From IMG/VR virus record IMGVR_UViG_2537562231_000028: a stretch of 8,330 bases of DNA; one strand, written 5' to 3'. The DNA is from a virus (Duplodnaviria; Heunggongvirae; Uroviricota; Caudoviricetes). Below, one piece after another: positions 1-8,330 of this stretch (position 1 is the stretch's first letter; each line of letters starts with the position of its first letter). Under the pieces are notes generated by a model. It had not been told where the DNA came from. It was given only the letters and a program-made list of their open reading frames with translations, and made no database searches. Both the position numbers and the translations under genes were made by a program.

Positions 1-1242
1 ATGGCGAGAAAAACACACCCATTAACCACAGTGCAGATCAAAGCAGCCAGACCAGCGCAAAAGGAGTACACCCTGCAGGACGGCGGAGGGCTTTTTCTCC
101 TGGTCAAACCGTCTGGATCAAAACTCTGGAGATTTTCCTACTACCGACCATCGGACAAAAAAAGAATATTGCTGAGTTTTGGATCGCTTGAAGATGTTTC
201 CCTGGCTGATGTCAGAAAACGCCGTAGCGAGTACAGGACGTTAATCAGTGCCGGAACTGACCCGCAGGACCACGAGAGGCAAAAAAGAGAGACAGAGGCC
301 CGAAGACAAGGGAACACGTTCGAAAATGTGGCGGCGGCATGGTACCAGGTGAAAATCAGCCAGAATCTGGCCCCCAACACGATTAAAGACATCTGGCGTT
401 CGCTGGATAAATATGTATTCCCGTTCATCGGCAACACGCCAATAGATACCCTCACCGCCCGAAGGTTCGTTGAAGTGCTTACCCCCATCAAGGAGCGCGG
501 CAACCTGGAAACACTCAAGCGGGTTTTACAGCGCGTTAATGAGGTAATGGATTACGCCGCCAACAGTGGGCTGATTGATGCCAATCCGGCTATGAATGTG
601 CGTAAGGCGTTTCCCTCACCTGTAAAAAAACATATGCCAACAATCCGCCCCGAACAGCTGCCGGAGCTTATGCAGGCTTTATCAGTATCGGCAACAGAAC
701 GGCAGACCAGATTACTGATTGAATGGCAGTTACTGACCGTAACCCGTCCCGCCGAAGCGTCATCAACGCGGTGGGATGAAATCAACCTGGACGCGAAGCA
801 ATGGACGATACCTGCCGGACGTATGAAGATGCGCAGGGATCACGTTATCCCGCTTTCCGGTCAGGCTATGGCGGTGCTGGAGGCCATGAAACCAATCAGC
901 CACCACCGCAATTACGTTTTCCCAAGTCTGAAAGACCCACAGCAGCCGATGAACAGCCAGACAGCTAACGCAGCATTGCGGCGTATGGGATTCGCTGGCG
1001 TGCTGGTGTCTCATGGATTACGCGCCATATTCAGCACAGCAGCGAACGAGGAAGGATTCGAGCCGGACGTAATAGAGGCGGCACTTGCCCACGTCGACAC
1101 CAACGAAGTTAGACGGGCATACAACCGGAGCAACTACATAGAAAAACGCATCGTGCTGATGCGCTGGTGGGGCGAATTTGTCGAGGCTGCGGCGACGGGC
1201 GTAACCCTCGCCAGTGGTAAAAGGGGTATCCGAGCCGTGTAG
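1..1242 (+). CDS. int: Tyrosine site-specific integrase, P4-type (N-terminal arm-binding domain plus C-terminal catalytic domain)
   Basis: 413 aa ORF. N-terminus LTTVQIKAARPAQKEYTLQDGGGLFLLVKPSGSKLWRFSYY matches the arm-DNA-binding domain typical of P4-like integrases. C-terminus carries HGLRAIFST and RAYNRSNY, consistent with the His-x-x-Arg and Tyr nucleophile motifs. ATG at position 1, so the att site or tRNA target would lie upstream, outside the window. Confidence 0.93.
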   Translation: MARKTHPLTTVQIKAARPAQKEYTLQDGGGLFLLVKPSGSKLWRFSYYRPSDKKRILLSFGSLEDVSLADVRKRRSEYRTLISAGTDPQDHERQKRETEARRQGNTFENVAAAWYQVKISQNLAPNTIKDIWRSLDKYVFPFIGNTPIDTLTARRFVEVLTPIKERGNLETLKRVLQRVNEVMDYAANSGLIDANPAMNVRKAFPSPVKKHMPTIRPEQLPELMQALSVSATERQTRLLIEWQLLTVTRPAEASSTRWDEINLDAKQWTIPAGRMKMRRDHVIPLSGQAMAVLEAMKPISHHRNYVFPSLKDPQQPMNSQTANAALRRMGFAGVLVSHGLRAIFSTAANEEGFEPDVIEAALAHVDTNEVRRAYNRSNYIEKRIVLMRWWGEFVEAAATGVTLASGKRGIRAV

Positions 1243-1738: not shown

Positions 1739-1945
1739 ATGGAAGCAATCAGAAAAATTATCTTTCGCCAGGAAGTAAAAAAAATTATCCACATCAAGGC
1801 AGACAGCACGCTGCAAAGCATGATCAACGCCGGAGAATTTCCGCAAGGTTTTCGCGTTGGTTTACGCCGTCGCGGATGGTATGAGGATGATGTGTTGGCC
1901 TGGCAGAAAGAACGCGAACAGGAAGCACGCGGAACGGCTGCTTAA
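1739..1945 (+). CDS. alpA: AlpA/Vis-family DNA-binding protein (phage transcriptional regulator or excisionase-like, MerR-type HTH)
   Basis: 68 aa. FRQEVKKIIHIKADSTLQSMINAGEFPQGFRVGLRRRGWYEDDVLAWQ fits the AlpA family pattern (HTH, then G-FP, then a conserved Trp). AAGGT lies 9 nt upstream of the ATG. Position next to int is typical. Confidence 0.8.
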   Translation: MEAIRKIIFRQEVKKIIHIKADSTLQSMINAGEFPQGFRVGLRRRGWYEDDVLAWQKEREQEARGTAA

Positions 1946-2327
1946 CGGGTATCACAGATATGACAAACACGAAAAAAGCGGCCCCGATATGGAGCCGCCT
2001 TTCTGAACAATTAACCCGCTGCGCCTTATGTGTATGTGATCCCAAACATAAGCACGGGGATGATAGCCGCTATCAGGCTGGTGGGCAATGCAATCAGTCT
2101 GGTTCAGTTCGTTGCCATAACTGCGAAGCTCTCTCCTTTGATGAGTATTCTTTAAGGTACTTCTCAAGGGCAAAAGAACACGGCGCGAATCGTTCTGATT
2201 CATGCTCTTTCTTTCTGCGTCGTCTTTTTCGTGCAGGTGATGTTTTTTTGGTTGATTCTTCGTTGGTCATTGTGTGCGCCTGTAAAGCAATGCGCCGTAG
2301 TACCTCACACCACGGCGCTGGTGATGG

Positions 2328-2507
2328 TTACTCCTGCTCTTTGGCCTTGCGGCGCTGGCGGCGTTTGATTTCGCCTTTAACGGCAGTAACTATAAATTGC
2401 GCTTTGCTTTCACCTTCATCTAAATTTTTTTCTAAGTCTGCAACAACATCATGCGGGAATCTGGCATTTAACTGTTGCGACTTATTATTTGTTGAACCTG
2501 TTGCCAT
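2328..2507 (-). CDS. Small ribbon-helix-helix-like DNA-binding protein (59 aa), candidate satellite repressor or autoregulator
   Basis: Internal ATG at 2505-2507 (minus strand) preceded by GAGAGGA with about 7 nt spacing; stop TAA at 2328-2330. MATGSTNNKSQQLNARFPHDVVADLEKNLDEGESKAQFIVTAVKGEIKRRQRRKAKEQE reads as beta strand (QLNARFP), helix, loop, helix, then a basic tail. The N-terminal extension from the TTG at 2672 has no RBS and looks like non-protein sequence. RHH fold is inferred by eye. Confidence 0.55.
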   Translation of the reverse strand: MATGSTNNKSQQLNARFPHDVVADLEKNLDEGESKAQFIVTAVKGEIKRRQRRKAKEQE

Positions 2508-3257: not shown

Positions 3258-3489
3258 TAAACTGGCGACCAGTGAATTAAGAAGCCTTGCCAACAGCGCA
3301 ATATCTTTAAACAACGCAGCAAACGAAGTAATGAATATGTGGCTTCAGTCGCTGGTGAATAATGAACGCAATGAATCAACTGCAAGATTAATATTAGCCG
3401 TTTCTGAATTACTGGATAGTTCAACCAGCAAAATAGAGAGCATATCAGAGAAGATTAACGGCTTATCAGGTCACGCTATCGGGGAATAA
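3247..3489 (+). CDS. Hypothetical Asn/Ser-rich small protein (80 aa; alternative ATG at 3229) in an AT-rich cassette
   Basis: ATG 3247 lies just before the upstream stop (3255-3257). About 39% GC by hand count. Sequence rich in N, S, L, E and likely helical. No family recognised. Confidence 0.45.
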   Translation: MKNNKLATSELRSLANSAISLNNAANEVMNMWLQSLVNNERNESTARLILAVSELLDSSTSKIESISEKINGLSGHAIGE

Positions 3490-3494
3490 AAATA

Positions 3495-3794
3495 ATGAAA
3501 CTTAAATATCCTGGCTTAACTGACAGCGGCAAAACTCGCACTAAATTCATGCGCGGGGATATTTACCGCGACCAGTACGGCGGCACGGTAATGATTAAGG
3601 GCGTGGAGGAACGGCGCGTAACCTACCATCGTGAAGGCTACGAATATGATTGCGTGATGCCTGTTTATCAGTTCCGGCGTGATTTTTCTCTGGTACAGGC
3701 AGCGCCCCGCAGTAAACCAACCAGCAGGGAGAAAGCACGCGCCAATATTCAGGAAATAAAAAAGATGCTTAACGTATTCAGGGGTAAAAAATGA
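3495..3794 (+). CDS. Hypothetical protein (99 aa) translationally coupled to the primase gene
   Basis: ATG 3495 follows the upstream stop by 5 nt. Its stop overlaps the primase start (ATGA at 3791-3794). Basic C-terminal tail. No family recognised. Confidence 0.5.
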   Translation: MKLKYPGLTDSGKTRTKFMRGDIYRDQYGGTVMIKGVEERRVTYHREGYEYDCVMPVYQFRRDFSLVQAAPRSKPTSREKARANIQEIKKMLNVFRGKK

Positions 3795-5545
3795 AACTGG
3801 CACCGAACGTAAAAAAACAGCCACGCGGAATAAAACACAAAGACACAGAGGTGATTATTTTCGCGGGTAGTGATGCGTGGGCACATGCAAAACAGTGGCA
3901 GGAGCAGGACGGCCCCGCATCCGGCGATAATGTGCCTCCTGTGTGGCTTGGGGAGCAGCAGTTATCAGAACTGGATAAGCTGCAAATTGTGCCGGAAGGC
4001 AGAAAATCCGTGCGCATATTCAGGGCCGGACATCTTGCACCAGTAATGATCAAGGCGATTGGTCAAAAGCTGGCGGCGGCTGGTGTACAGGATGCAAATT
4101 TTTATCCTGAGGGTATGCACGGCAAGGAGGTGCAGAACTGGCGCGAATACCTGGCCCGTGAACGCCAGAATCTTTCTGATGGTCTGGTCATTGAGCTTCC
4201 GGTAAAGCAAAAGGCGCAACTTTCGCAGATGGCGGACAGTGAGCGCGCGCAGCTGCTTGCCGATCGCTTTGATGGCGTTTGCGTACATCCTGAAAGTGAA
4301 ATTGTTCACGTATGGCGCGGCGGGGTATGGTGTCCGGTCAGCACAATGGAACTTAGCCGCGAAATGGTGGCGATCTATTCAGAGCACAGGGCCACTTTCA
4401 GCAAGCGCGTAATCAATAACGCCGTGGAAGCGTTAAAAGTTATTGCCGAACCAATGGGCGAGCCGTCCGGCGATTTGCTGCCGTTCGCCAATGGTGCGCT
4501 TGACCTGAAAACGGGGGAATTTTCCCCGCACACGCCGGAGAACTGGATCACCACGCACAACGGCATTGAGTACACGCCACCAGCACCAGGGGAGAATATC
4601 CGCGACAACGCGCCAAACTTTCATAAATGGCTTGAGCACGCAGCCGGAAAAGACCCGCGCAAGATGATGCGTATATGTGCCGCGCTGTACATGATTATGG
4701 CGAACCGGTACGACTGGCAGATGTTTATTGAGGCCACCGGAGACGGCGGGAGCGGTAAAAGTACATTCACACACATAGCCAGCCTTCTGGCAGGGAAACA
4801 GAACACGGTAAGCGCTGAAATGACATCGCTTGATGATGCTGGTGGACGTGCGCAGGTTGTCGGGAGTCGTCTTATCGTCCTGGCTGACCAGCCGAAATAT
4901 ACAGGCGAAGGAACGGGCATCAAGAAAATCACGGGCGGCGACCCCGTGGAAATTAACCCGAAATATGAAAAGCGTTTCACGGCGGTAATCAGGGCGGTGG
5001 TGCTGGCGACCAACAACAACCCGATGATATTCACCGAACGGGCCGGAGGTGTGGCACGTCGTCGCGTGATTTTCCGTTTCGACAATATTGTTAGTGAGGC
5101 CGAAAAAGACAGGGAGCTACCGGAAAAAATTGCGGCTGAAATCCCCGTCATTATCCGCCGCTTGCTGGCGAACTTTACCGACCCTGAAAAGGCACGGGCT
5201 TTACTCATTGAGCAGCGTGACGGTGATGAAGCTCTGGCAATAAAGCAACAGACGGATCCGGTTATTGAGTTTTGCCAGTTCCTGAATTTTCTGGAGGAAG
5301 CGCGCGGCCTGATGATGGGGGGCGGTGGCGATTCAGTGAAGTACACGACCAGGAACAGCCTTTACCGCGTCTATCTGGCGTTTATGGCATACGCAGGCAG
5401 GAGCAAACCGCTAAACGTGGCTGAGTTCAGCAAGGCCATGAAGCCAGCGGCGAAAGTTTACGGGCATGAATATATTACGCGAAAAGTTAAGGGAGTAACG
5501 CAGACCAACGCAATTACAACAGACGATTGCGACGCGTTTTTATAA
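3791..5545 (+). CDS. Satellite replication protein: primase/helicase with a D5-like (SF3-type) P-loop NTPase domain
   Basis: 584 aa. Walker A GDGGSGKST; downstream hydrophobic strand plus acidic residue (RLIVLADQP) consistent with Walker B. GGGG 6 nt before the ATG. Position immediately upstream of an iteron cluster matches Pri-Rep of PICIs and alpha of P4. Confidence 0.88.
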   Translation: MKLAPNVKKQPRGIKHKDTEVIIFAGSDAWAHAKQWQEQDGPASGDNVPPVWLGEQQLSELDKLQIVPEGRKSVRIFRAGHLAPVMIKAIGQKLAAAGVQDANFYPEGMHGKEVQNWREYLARERQNLSDGLVIELPVKQKAQLSQMADSERAQLLADRFDGVCVHPESEIVHVWRGGVWCPVSTMELSREMVAIYSEHRATFSKRVINNAVEALKVIAEPMGEPSGDLLPFANGALDLKTGEFSPHTPENWITTHNGIEYTPPAPGENIRDNAPNFHKWLEHAAGKDPRKMMRICAALYMIMANRYDWQMFIEATGDGGSGKSTFTHIASLLAGKQNTVSAEMTSLDDAGGRAQVVGSRLIVLADQPKYTGEGTGIKKITGGDPVEINPKYEKRFTAVIRAVVLATNNNPMIFTERAGGVARRRVIFRFDNIVSEAEKDRELPEKIAAEIPVIIRRLLANFTDPEKARALLIEQRDGDEALAIKQQTDPVIEFCQFLNFLEEARGLMMGGGGDSVKYTTRNSLYRVYLAFMAYAGRSKPLNVAEFSKAMKPAAKVYGHEYITRKVKGVTQTNAITTDDCDAFL

Positions 5546-5553
5546 TTTTTTGT

Positions 5554-5790
5554 AAAAGCCCTCTACCCCATCTACCTGAATGAAATAAACGCATATTATT
5601 CAACATGATAAGTGGGTAGAGGGCCAGGTAGAAGGCTAATAAAAGCTCTCTACCTCTTCTACCTGATTTTATCAGTTTCAGGTAGCAGGGTAGACGGCAG
5701 GTAGAGGAGCCCAAAAAGCTATCTACCCGCTGAAAGCCGCGCCATTACTGACATGATGAGCATTCGGGTAGATGGGTAGAGGGGGGGAGG
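5554..5790. repeat. Iteron-type replication origin: three modules of forward TCTACC-type repeats paired with inverted GGTAGA-type repeats
   Basis: Forward blocks 5554-5578 (AAAAGCCCTCTACCCCATCTACCTG), 5641-5666, 5714-5728. Inverted blocks 5613-5635, 5679-5709, 5765-5787. AT-rich spacers between them (for example 5579-5612). Directly downstream of the primase/helicase stop. Confidence 0.7.
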
Positions 5791-5891
5791 CACAACTAAA
5801 AACTTTTTAAACGAGGGGGTGAAAATAAATGCGCATACATCAAAATCACTTAACAAACATGCCAGCCGAAAACATGAATCAGGGGCGACAA

Positions 5892-6137
5892 ATGACCAAA
5901 ATTCGCAGAGACAGAACAGAGCCAAAATATAAAGCGTTAGACATGACTGAGCATACCTTAAAGGTGGCAATCAGAACGATAGACCGCCACGCGGGGGAAG
6001 GATACGCGAAAGCACATCCCGACCTGATAAGCGCATTCATGACCACGACGGCGGCAAACTTTGCCACGCTGACAGAACGGGAGATTGCCGAAGCGGAACA
6101 GGTAACAACCATCAACGTTAAAAGCGCTGGAGAATAA
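5892..6137 (+). CDS. Hypothetical small protein (81 aa from ATG 5892; the track ORF begins at 5829)
   Basis: GGGG at 5882-5885, 6 nt before ATG 5892. Followed 19 nt later by a strong intrinsic terminator. No family recognised. Confidence 0.45.
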   Translation: MTKIRRDRTEPKYKALDMTEHTLKVAIRTIDRHAGEGYAKAHPDLISAFMTTTAANFATLTEREIAEAEQVTTINVKSAGE

Positions 6138-6628: not shown

Positions 6629-6680
6629 GGGGGGGGGAGTGTTCCGGCCGGAAAGTCGATCGCCCTGGACACCGCCCCCC
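6629..6680. promoter_or_regulatory. G9 / C6-flanked imperfect dyad containing nested palindromes
   Basis: G-run 6629-6637 and C-run 6675-6680. GGGGGGGAGTGTTCC (6631-6645) pairs imperfectly with GGACACCGCCCCCC (6667-6680). Loop holds the palindromes CCGGCCGG (6643-6650) and CGATCG (6657-6662). No downstream T-run. Confidence 0.35.
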
Positions 6681-6709
6681 GTCTCATTCGTAGAAAATTT
6701 TGCTTTTCA

Positions 6710-6733
6710 AAAAAGTTACACGAAAAGTTACAC
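6710..6733 (+). repeat. Tandem AAAAGTTACAC repeat (2 copies) upstream of terS
   Basis: AAAAAGTTACAC at 6710-6721 and GAAAAGTTACAC at 6722-6733. Same core as the repeats inside terS at 6953-6986. Confidence 0.6.
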
Positions 6734-6755
6734 CCCCTCAAAACGAGGTTTTTGC

Positions 6756-7244
6756 ATGGCATTAACGACCAAAAAAAAGCGGTTTGCTGATGCGTTATCA
6801 AGGGGCGCAAATCCCACGGAAGCCGCTATACATGCGGGATACAGCGAAAAGACCGCAAGGGTCAAAGGCTGGCAGCTATCCAACGATCCTGAGGTGAAAA
6901 AGTATCTTAAGGCTGTAACTCCTGATGTAACTTTTCAGGTTACAAAACCGAAAAAAGTTACAAAGAAAGTTACCGAAAAAGTTACACCGGAACGGGCATC
7001 AATTAACACCATTGAGATGATGGATAACGGCCTACCCGACCCCATCAAAGCAATGGGCAGGATACTGATTGACAACATGGACACAGATCCAAAACTGGCT
7101 TTAGATGCCGCGTTTAAGCTGGCCCAGTTCACCCACCGCAAGATCGGCAGCATTGGGAAAAAAGAGGTTAAAAAACTCAATGCCGCTAGTGTCTACTCAA
7201 ATCGGTTCCCCATCCCTAAGCCACCAACAGACTTAAAACACTGA
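6756..7244 (+). CDS. terS: Terminase small subunit (TerS) with N-terminal HTH
   Basis: 162 aa from ATG 6756 (CGAGG 8 nt upstream); the track ORF from 6639 is an unlikely extension. KKKRFADALSRGANPTEAAIHAGYSEKTARVKGWQLSNDPEVKKYL matches the TerS N-terminal HTH pattern (AAI-AGYS-KTA). Confidence 0.7.
   Translation: MALTTKKKRFADALSRGANPTEAAIHAGYSEKTARVKGWQLSNDPEVKKYLKAVTPDVTFQVTKPKKVTKKVTEKVTPERASINTIEMMDNGLPDPIKAMGRILIDNMDTDPKLALDAAFKLAQFTHRKIGSIGKKEVKKLNAASVYSNRFPIPKPPTDLKH
6915..6986 (+). repeat. Cluster of six GTTAC/GTAAC-core repeats inside terS, including three tandem AAAGTTAC(A) units
   Basis: GTAACT at 6915-6920 and 6927-6932; GGTTACA 6939-6945; AGTTACA 6957-6963; AGTTACC 6969-6975; AGTTACA 6980-6986. 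Encodes the KVT-repeat linker KPKKVTKKVTEKVTPE. Confidence 0.6.
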
Positions 7245-7255
7245 GGTAGCGAACT

Positions 7256-7417
7256 ATGAGCGAATACATCACAGACCCTATTGATGTACTCACGGAAATC
7301 ATGAACGACAAGCAGCAGTCGACCGAAATACGGTTACAGGCCGCCGCTGTTCTGATGCCATATTTTCACGAAACACTAAACCCGTGCTTCCAGGAGGAGG
7401 AAGAAGATGATCTGTAA
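7256..7417 (+). CDS. Hypothetical small acidic-tailed protein (53 aa); absent from the supplied ORF track
   Basis: ATG 7256 lies 11 nt after the terS stop, with GAGGT upstream. Hand translation: MSEYITDPIDVLTEIMNDKQQSTEIRLQAAAVLMPYFHETLNPCFQEEEEDDL. Its 3' end overlaps the start of the capsid gene. Confidence 0.4.
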   Translation: MSEYITDPIDVLTEIMNDKQQSTEIRLQAAAVLMPYFHETLNPCFQEEEEDDL

Positions 7418-8330
7418 AAACATGAAAGGCGTGTCAGCAGTTCGCGCCGCCAGCGTGCTGGCATCGTGTAAATTTAGCCATGCTGACGCTATAGAGATGA
7501 CGAAAAGAAATGATCCGGCAGTATCGTTATTTCTTGAAAAATCCGTAGTAGCAGGAATGAACACGGATAACATGCCGTCGCTGGTGGCAGAGCCGATAGT
7601 AAGAGAGCTTGGCGAGTATATTTTTTCGCAGTCTGTACCAGGCAAGCTAATCAGCAGCGCGCTAAATCTTCCTTTTGGCGCAAAATTGCAGTCAATATCA
7701 GGCAAGGGCAGTAAATGGCTTAAAGAAGCCGAAGAAATCCCTGTCAAAGAGGGAGAAGTAAACGAAAGTGCGCTAAAACTGTGCAAACTTGGCGCTATTG
7801 TGATGCTGAATAACGAGCTAATCAAATTTAGCACCCCTGGTACAAATTCAGCGATCAGAGACTTGATCACATCGGAATCGGTGAAAGAAATAGATAAAAA
7901 ATTTCTTTCCAGTGACCAGGAGGTGGCTGGCGTATCCCCTGAGGGCGTGCTTAATGGTGCTGATGAGGCCGAAAACTTCATAGAGCTTTTCAAAAAGCAC
8001 ATAGCGAACGGTAACACGCTTTCCACGTCGTCGCTAATCTTGCCCGTAGAAAACGCCTTACAGCTTACTGATGCTGAGTTCTGGCAGATAGAGCTTTTGA
8101 GAATACCGGTAATTGTGAGCGAACAGGCGGATCGCATGATGCTGATAGACGCTCAAAAGCTGATTATTAACGTTGAAGCCACGGTTATAACCCCAACTGA
8201 TGAGGCGGTAATAAAAACCGAATCAGGGGCGGTTAGCCTTTTCCAGAATGACGCTACAGCGTTCAGGGCAATCACCTATTGCGGATGGCAAAAACTCGAT
8301 AAGGCCGTCACCGTTCTGGCGAAAAGCTGA
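7407..8330 (+). CDS. Putative major capsid protein, HK97-like fold (candidate; no N-terminal delta domain apparent)
   Basis: 307 aa. AGGAGGAGG 6 nt before ATG 7407. KLGAIVMLNNELIKFS ... AIRDLITSESVKEIDKKFLSSDQEVAGVSPEGVLNG resembles the HK97-family pattern of a hydrophobic strand followed by a Gly-rich P-x-G-hh-N-G loop (compare HK97 gp5 LLNGDGTGDNLEGL). Call made by eye. Confidence 0.5.
   Translation: MICKNMKGVSAVRAASVLASCKFSHADAIEMTKRNDPAVSLFLEKSVVAGMNTDNMPSLVAEPIVRELGEYIFSQSVPGKLISSALNLPFGAKLQSISGKGSKWLKEAEEIPVKEGEVNESALKLCKLGAIVMLNNELIKFSTPGTNSAIRDLITSESVKEIDKKFLSSDQEVAGVSPEGVLNGADEAENFIELFKKHIANGNTLSTSSLILPVENALQLTDAEFWQIELLRIPVIVSEQADRMMLIDAQKLIINVEATVITPTDEAVIKTESGAVSLFQNDATAFRAITYCGWQKLDKAVTVLAKS

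Follow-up and report, generated by a model that had tools for sequence, protein, structure and literature searches.

The window, by which we mean the whole 8330-bp stretch of DNA analysed here, is an E. coli PICI (phage-satellite island) at tRNA-Pro (yejM/yejO). The products recognised by Pfam, namely an integrase, an AlpA-like protein, DUF4222, a D5_N/DUF5906/Pox_D5 protein, TerS and a capsid protein, are all encoded on the + strand (Table 1). The island has what is expected of a PICI: an integrase, AlpA, rightward transcription, a small size and an att site of its own. In O55:H7 DEC5A it is inserted at tRNA-Pro between yejM and yejO, and the yejM att region is also listed for the E. coli PICIs EcCI11368.1 (8.5 kb) and EcCI11128 (Fillol-Salom 2018, PMC6092414). 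Of 5426 complete E. coli genomes, 534 contain the part on which we focus (block 5400-5900), and it was chromosomal every time.

The 3' part of the island (window 6639-8330; L001 13357-14931) consists of TerS, a 53-aa ORF and a 307-aa capsid gene, directly followed by yejO. A full capsid-forming PICI had been expected, but these three genes are all that is present of such a module: portal, protease and TerL (large terminase) are absent from the island. The packaging module is either minimal or truncated, like that of the 8.5-kb EcCI11368.1, and such a short island may be a decaying copy with an origin that is no longer in use. As a separate observation, the AT skew is strongly negative (to -0.46) at window 2100-2500 and positive in the remainder of the island. 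This suggests minus-strand coding there (ORF 2328-2672, minus), at a place where the RefSeq record annotates a + strand ORF.

Table 1. Genes of the window and parts of the repeat block, with positions counted from the first letter of the window (F, forward iteron, TCTACC; R, inverted iteron, GGTAGA)
Feature	Positions	Strand	Basis or remarks
Tyrosine integrase	1-1242	+	Pfam
AlpA-like protein	1739-1945	+	Pfam
DUF4222	3495-3794	+	Pfam
Pri-Rep: N-terminal domain, D5_N, SF3 helicase (DUF5906), C-terminal Pox_D5/P4-type origin-binding domain	3791-5545	+	Pfam, TIGR01613
Winged-helix origin-binding domain (aa 488-576)	5252-5518	+	phmmer to PDB 1KA8; putative iteron reader
Half A	5562-5663		FF, AT spacer, RR, FF; spacing of P4 ori1
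Iterons F1, F2	5562-5576	+	TCTACC x2 (5562, 5571), 9 bp apart; left arm of half A
Spacer 1	5577-5614		38 bp, 74% AT; predicted melting site
Iterons R1, R2	5615-5632	-	GGTAGA x2 (5615, 5627), 12 bp apart
Iterons F3, F4	5649-5663	+	5649, 5658; right end of half A; offsets from F1 match P4 ori1
Spacer 2	5664-5680		17 bp, 76% AT; variable junction of halves A and B
Half B	5681-5808		RRR, F, spacer, RR, A5CT5; spacing of one P4 crr unit
Iterons R3', R4, R5	5681-5705	-	5681 (GGTAGC, degenerate), 5689, 5700; left end of half B
Iteron F5	5722-5727	+	Lone forward iteron of half B
Spacer 3	5728-5766		39 bp, 46% AT; holds 14-mer CCGCGCCATTACTG (5737-5750)
Iterons R6, R7	5767-5780	-	5767, 5775; 8 bp apart; right arm of half B
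A5CT5 tract	5798-5808		End of half B; invariant in TCTACC-type alignment
TerS	6639-7244	+	Pfam
HK97-type capsid protein	7407-8330	+	Pfam

The replication gene of the island encodes Pri-Rep. Its helicase part (aa 188-432) matches PDB 7OLA, the staphylococcal PICI self-loading helicase (E=2.9e-15), whereas aa 488-576 match PDB 1KA8, the origin-binding domain of P4 alpha (phmmer E=8.3e-6, 88 of 100 residues covered). P4 alpha and the window's Pri-Rep are 40% identical over aa 141-573. For the N-terminal 150 residues (window 3791-4240), neither Pfam nor NCBIfam gave a match, and only PHROGs 2850 (unknown function), 864 and 1139 were hit; in the alignment with P4 alpha, the P4 zinc finger and Toprim DxD segments fall on gaps in this region. 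Because of that, the annotated ‘DNA primase’, called a primase/helicase in the earlier note, may not be a primase in the P4 sense, and the ‘primase’ part of the model is unsupported.

Directly beyond the stop codon of this gene (TAA, 5543-5545) lies a dense cluster of short repeats, or iterons, of which the first begins 17 nt further on. The word TCTACC/GGTAGA is matched exactly 11 times in the window; shuffling predicts 2.09 +/- 1.49, and none of 200 shuffles attains the observed number. All 11 fall inside 5562-5780, with no second cluster in the window; the chance that 11 random sites would come to lie within 219 bp is roughly 2e-15. A twelfth copy has one mismatch (GCTACC, read as GGTAGC at 5681), giving 5 forward and 7 inverted iterons in the order FF, RR, FF, R'RR, F, RR. 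Adjacent copies are spaced 8-12 bp apart, and the base 3' of the TCTACC core is C or T in all of them; the iterons measure 6-8 bp. The three forward/inverted modules that the earlier note, made from the letters alone, had described after the stop codon are confirmed by this order, although the modules are unequal (2+2, 2+3 and 1+2 copies).

Part of the regular look of the block is peculiar to this allele. AAAAGC does stand ahead of each forward block (5554, 5641 and 5714), as had been noticed, but as a general feature it does not hold, the leader being specific to this allele. It was also rejected as a part of the iteron, since it is unconserved in CFT073-type alleles and has 11 copies across the window. 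The leaders, together with the 27-30-nt direct repeats D2 and D3 inside the block, cause the regularity, and both the leader and D2/D3 are missing from most orthologous origins. What had seemed an ‘unusually regular’ three-fold modularity is the standard layout of an origin family, slightly regularised here by internal duplication. Another repeated word, ACATGATRAG (D6) in spacers 1 and 3, is unconserved in orthologues and was treated as chance.

The experimental anchor for the block is the origin of EcCICFT073, a Gram-negative PICI. In the work of Fillol-Salom et al. 2018 (ISME J, PMC6092414), a plasmid carrying pri and ori replicated, whereas its delta-pri mutant did not; the delta-ori mutant yielded significantly fewer colonies, although some still formed (PMC6092414). 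Window 3480-6126 and the CFT073 island share 89% DNA identity, and 565 of 584 residues are identical between the two Pri-Rep proteins (97%), with 3 differences in the last 120 residues. When the published primers are mapped onto CFT073, the delta-ori construct ends at L011 7000, just past the stop codon, and the pri-ori construct near L011 7308. The two constructs differ by L011 7001-7308 (308 bp), so that what was tested as ‘ori’ corresponds exactly, by orthology, to window ~5550-5850. A deletion primer of PMC6092414 overlaps the first two iterons, and the CFT073 clone that replicated held pri and this intergenic block only.

The two alleles are alike in most respects. Both blocks lie directly 3' of pri-rep, use the TCTACC core, have the same total copy number and share nearly identical offsets (+17, +26, ... 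+230 from the stop codon); both also contain the 14-mer of spacer 3 and the A/T tract. The CFT073 layout is FF, R, FFF, RR, F, RR, and one copy is thus inverted relative to the window, which has FF RR FF where CFT073 has FF R FFF. Furthermore, the window allele adds the AAAAGC leaders and the 27-30-nt internal direct repeats, and the central part is only ~78% identical. The islands themselves differ more: that of the window sits at tRNA-Pro/yejM and has TerS and a short capsid gene, whereas the CFT073 island sits at ycfD-phoQ, and its packaging module comprises major capsid and head-decoration genes with no terminase small-subunit gene annotated. Considering the site directly 3' of pri-rep, the arrangement FF, 38 bp of 74% AT, RR, and the orthology of both ori and Pri-Rep, we hold the block to be most probably the replication origin of the PICI, an allele of the EcCICFT073-type ori (probability about 0.9). 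As such, the feature is not new: a PICI origin of which it is an allele has already been described and tested by experiment, the tested one being the orthologue.

To place this allele among its relatives, we compared 89 loci: 3 from genomes, 80 from IMG/VR (alignment-based scan) and several annotated records, with 68 distinct downstream sequences. Per locus, the dominant word was counted in the 330 nt past the stop codon. Where the initiator is >=70% identical to that of the window, the dominant word is TCTACC; where it is 53-55% identical, and in P4 itself, it is TGTTCA(C/T). Three loci (L088/89/92) use GGTATACAT, whereas L084/90, close relatives of L088, use GGTGTTCAT, although the binding domains of the two groups are identical at 95 of 110 positions (86%). 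Class-specific substitutions in the C-terminal domains track the iteron word, while layout and offsets are retained across all word classes. Same-orientation copies change in concert, which is the behaviour one would expect of protein-binding iterons rather than of base-paired stems. The A-B layout (the order of the two halves listed in Table 1) also occurs with the word TGTTCAC, in Serratia (L003), Morganella (L004), the induced element vB_KppS-Ant (L006), L080 and L084.

Within the TCTACC class, ten aligned alleles show 86% pairwise identity in the iteron cores; the value rises to 97% if only the eight positionally stable cores are counted, and it is 64.5% in the rest of the block. F1 and F2 keep the same offsets (+17 and +26 from the stop codon) in nearly all TCTACC-type loci. 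Spacer 1 varies in sequence but retains its composition: every relative, as well as P4 ori1, has an AT-rich spacer of 35-45 bp at its position. The R1/R2 position is less constant, as CFT073-type alleles have a single inverted copy there and a third forward copy instead of the second, and one copy switches its orientation, being R at +82 in some alleles and F at +94 in others. Spacer 2 differs among alleles in both length and sequence and is the most variable part of the block. The offsets -39/-31/-20 of R3', R4 and R5 from the lone forward copy recur in the rearranged loci L072 and L074.

A natural module swap points in the same direction as the co-variation. EcCI11368.1 (L012, NC_013361.1) has an integrase with the same protein accession as that of the window, and its AlpA, DUF4222, TerS and capsid genes are homologous. 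In place of Pri-Rep and its iterons, it carries a RepA-family helicase followed by unrelated GTGGGGAG iterons (L012 5254-6516), and homology with the window breaks off at 4154, to return at 5906. It is thus the helicase/binding-domain segment that the repeats accompany, rather than the integrase, AlpA, DUF4222, TerS or capsid genes. The helicase, the binding domain and the origin behave like one exchangeable cassette (window ~4154-5906). At the start of the rep gene, ~120 codons (3791-4154) are common to both helicase types, with 77% DNA identity.

Several single loci deserve mention in their own right. In L009 (E. coli VL40, NZ_CM177011.1, 98-2940), the primase gene is interrupted by the IS110-family element ISSso6. 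Relative to its intact close relative L034, 4 of 72 core positions and 13 of 211 non-core positions differ, an equal rate, and the iterons of L009 look as if constraint had been lost. The viral contig L072 has, ~1.2 kb downstream of its first origin, another GTCTACC-type cluster (RR FF, AT, RR ... FF, AT, RR; 4456-4710), which could represent a second origin or belong to an adjacent element. Finally, L093 (Pasteurella phage Pmp7, 2990-3110) has only a half-B-like unit, with RR, F, AT spacer, RR, A/T tract and a GTGAA-type word, located directly after the primase gene and a terminator.

Comparison with phage P4 gives the block an internal logic that differs from three modules. Our statements on P4 rest on the GenBank annotation and general knowledge, and the agreement in spacing is descriptive, without a statistic. 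In the P4 record, crr lies directly 3' of alpha as two 120-bp units, each with type 1 repeats in the order R F F, 35 bp, R R, and with A8CT6 or A8T6 at its end. P4 ori1, read in alpha orientation, is FF, 35 bp AT-rich, R, FFF. Measured as 8-mer starts from the first forward copy, the offsets of half A are 0, 10, 53, 75, 86 and 96 in P4 ori1; 0, 9, 57, 77, 88 and 97 in CFT073; and 0, 9, 55, 67, 87 and 96 in the window. For half B, measured from the lone forward copy, they are -32, (-18 forward), 0, +43 and +52 in P4 crr, with the A/T tract at +68; -31, -20, 0, +48 and +57 in CFT073, with the tract at +81; and -39, -31, -20, 0, +47 and +55 in the window, with the tract at +78. The 8-mers themselves, TGTTCACC in P4 and TGTCTACC in the CFT073-type, agree at 6 of 8 positions when set in register.

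The two halves can also be found apart. They are contiguous in the order A-B in the window, whereas in L072-75 (TCTACC) and L078/79 (TGTTCAC) B comes first and A follows after 70-90 bp of other sequence. P4 has A, alpha and then B twice; throughout these arrangements the internal spacing is fixed. The conserved units are two halves, not three modules. What had been read as ‘module 2’ is thus the junction of two separable units, and its spacer 2 is the most variable part.

Not all conserved parts of the block are iterons. The non-iteron 14-mer CCGCGYCATTACTG (window 5737-5750) is invariant and is present as a single + strand copy in spacer 3 of 60 fetched loci; L078, which has another iteron word, carries a near-copy in the same spacer. 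The melting model sketched below does not account for spacer 3, which is not AT-rich and holds this invariant 14-mer. In that respect, the AT-rich spacers claimed earlier are found in spacers 1 and 2 and not in spacer 3. The A5CT5 tract also follows half B in the opposite-order loci, where B does not adjoin the downstream gene, and it has counterparts at the ends of both P4 crr units (A8CT6 and A8T6; L005 3016-3030 and 3198-3211). The tract could be a bend or unwinding element. As it belongs to the element, the originally proposed extent (5554-5790) covers the iterons but stops just short of the conserved end at 5808.

How might such an origin work? Upon induction, Pri-Rep would be made, and its P4-alpha-type origin-binding (winged-helix) domain would dock on the iterons, whose pairs and triplets are 8-12 bp, about one helical turn, apart. 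The converging arrays would orient oligomers of the SF3 helicase toward spacer 1 (38 bp, 74% AT), which would then melt, and two self-loaded hexamers would drive bidirectional theta replication. Half B, by analogy with crr, would serve as an auxiliary cis site that recruits more initiator. For the window allele, iteron binding, melting of spacer 1 and the start site are predictions from the letters and from homology. The same model reportedly applies to P4 alpha at ori and crr. A model of this kind has likewise been given for SaPI Rep proteins (PMC9371898).

The alternative that lies closest to the origin reading is that the block acts only as a crr-like cis enhancer, with replication truly starting at another place in the island, as in P4. 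The block occupies the same position as P4 crr (crr, and not ori1, is what follows alpha directly), and half B matches a crr unit in both spacing and terminal A/T tract. On the other hand, every exact TCTACC copy of the window lies in the block, while CFT073 has just one stray copy outside it; half A reproduces the layout of P4 ori1, and the CFT073 clone replicated with pri and the block alone. We thus consider an enhancer without an origin improbable. Still less probable, in our view, is that the repeats serve the island's TerS as a pac site, or that a regulator of the packaging operon downstream uses them as operators, even though the block lies upstream of the TerS and capsid genes and the segment A5CT5...GAGGGGG is invariant up to the next start codon. 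EcCI11368.1, with the same TerS, capsid, AlpA and DUF4222, has unrelated repeats, whereas the CFT073 island has the same repeats next to a different packaging module. Moreover, the iteron word follows the DNA-binding domain of the initiator, and no sigma-70-like promoter was found.

The least probable explanation is a nucleic-acid structure, be it a terminator, a cruciform or a structured RNA, in which the inverted repeats would form stems. The single strand does fold better than 200 of 200 shuffles (z = -4.9), but this follows trivially from the fact that all arms are one word, each forward copy being able to pair with every inverted one. Pairwise compensation would be expected of stems, whereas the same-orientation copies change together, one copy flips between alleles, and the halves occur in opposite order in some relatives. 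Given this concerted evolution and the flips in orientation, the fold, though significant, was rejected as an explanation. At a permissive threshold, Rfam returned only a sub-threshold match to a plant miRNA, taken as chance, and no match above threshold; a promoter and terminator scan of 5400-5950 found nothing. The origin reading, on the other hand, is favoured by the 1KA8 homology, the EcCICFT073 orthology, the co-variation of word and domain and the module swap, which together also support the earlier proposal that the origin is bound by the replication protein encoded upstream.

In short, the annotation is settled: 5546-5812 can be entered as the island's origin, which with Pri-Rep forms one exchangeable module (window about 4154-5906). 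The current understanding of how such origins work is unchanged. For P4-like and PICI satellites, the comparison provides a rule for finding origins, namely to look for the dominant 6-8-mer downstream of the helicase gene and then for the A and B layouts. It also yields candidate specificity residues in the origin-binding domain, and the natural variants in which the halves are reordered or split could reveal the role of the crr-type half. What may be new is the view that origins of this family combine two halves, one like ori1 and one like crr.

Set against known systems, the block first calls to mind the classical iteron origins of plasmids. The origins of pSC101, R6K, RK2 and P1 have direct repeats of 17-22 bp, RepA/pi-type initiators and DnaA boxes, and rely on loading of the host DnaB. 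In these origins, as in the window, repeated initiator sites adjoin an AT-rich stretch. In contrast, the words of the window are 6-8 bp and occur in both orientations, and the initiator is itself an SF3 helicase. The block holds no DnaA boxes, the matches in the window being only at 22, 1785 and 3217. A classical plasmid iteron origin was rejected on account of repeat length, orientation and the absent DnaA boxes.

The resemblance to SaPI origins is closer. These have iterons 3' of rep and a central AT-rich region with >=2 iterons per side in opposite directions (PMC9371898). The window block likewise fits this pattern, in which short iterons, six to twelve in number, follow rep directly on its 3' side, with an AT-rich centre and opposed iterons. 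In both systems, the reader would be a C-terminal winged-helix domain, and the helicase domains are homologous (7OLA). The iteron words differ, however, and the window element has a second half (B) with a non-AT spacer.

P4 offers the most instructive comparison. The initiators are homologous, with 40% identity and a 1KA8-type origin-binding domain, although the zinc finger and Toprim primase N-terminus of alpha are unaligned in the window protein. P4 crr, like the window block, lies directly 3' of the initiator gene, and in spacing, though in spacing only, the iterons of the window are arranged like those within ori1 and within a crr unit. P4, however, has ori1 ~2.4 kb upstream of alpha and two crr units, whereas the halves of the window are contiguous and single, so that instead of two cis sites with a duplicated 120-bp crr there is one contiguous block of ~250 bp. 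Nor is the P4 type I iteron TGTTCACC the word of the window, which is TCTACC, though relatives at 53-55% identity use TGTTCAC. On balance, we lean toward reading the PICI origin as a compact fusion of cis elements that P4 keeps apart. The order and distance of the halves would be free, and the 14-mer and the AnTn tract would be further, undescribed parts. The specificity of the word and winged-helix domain would have switched repeatedly, at least three times (TGTTCACC, TGTCTACC/TCTACC and GTATACAT). A literature search that was thin on P4 turned up no paper stating this ori1/crr reading. If it is true, the islands form a natural series for studying bipartite SF3-helicase origins.
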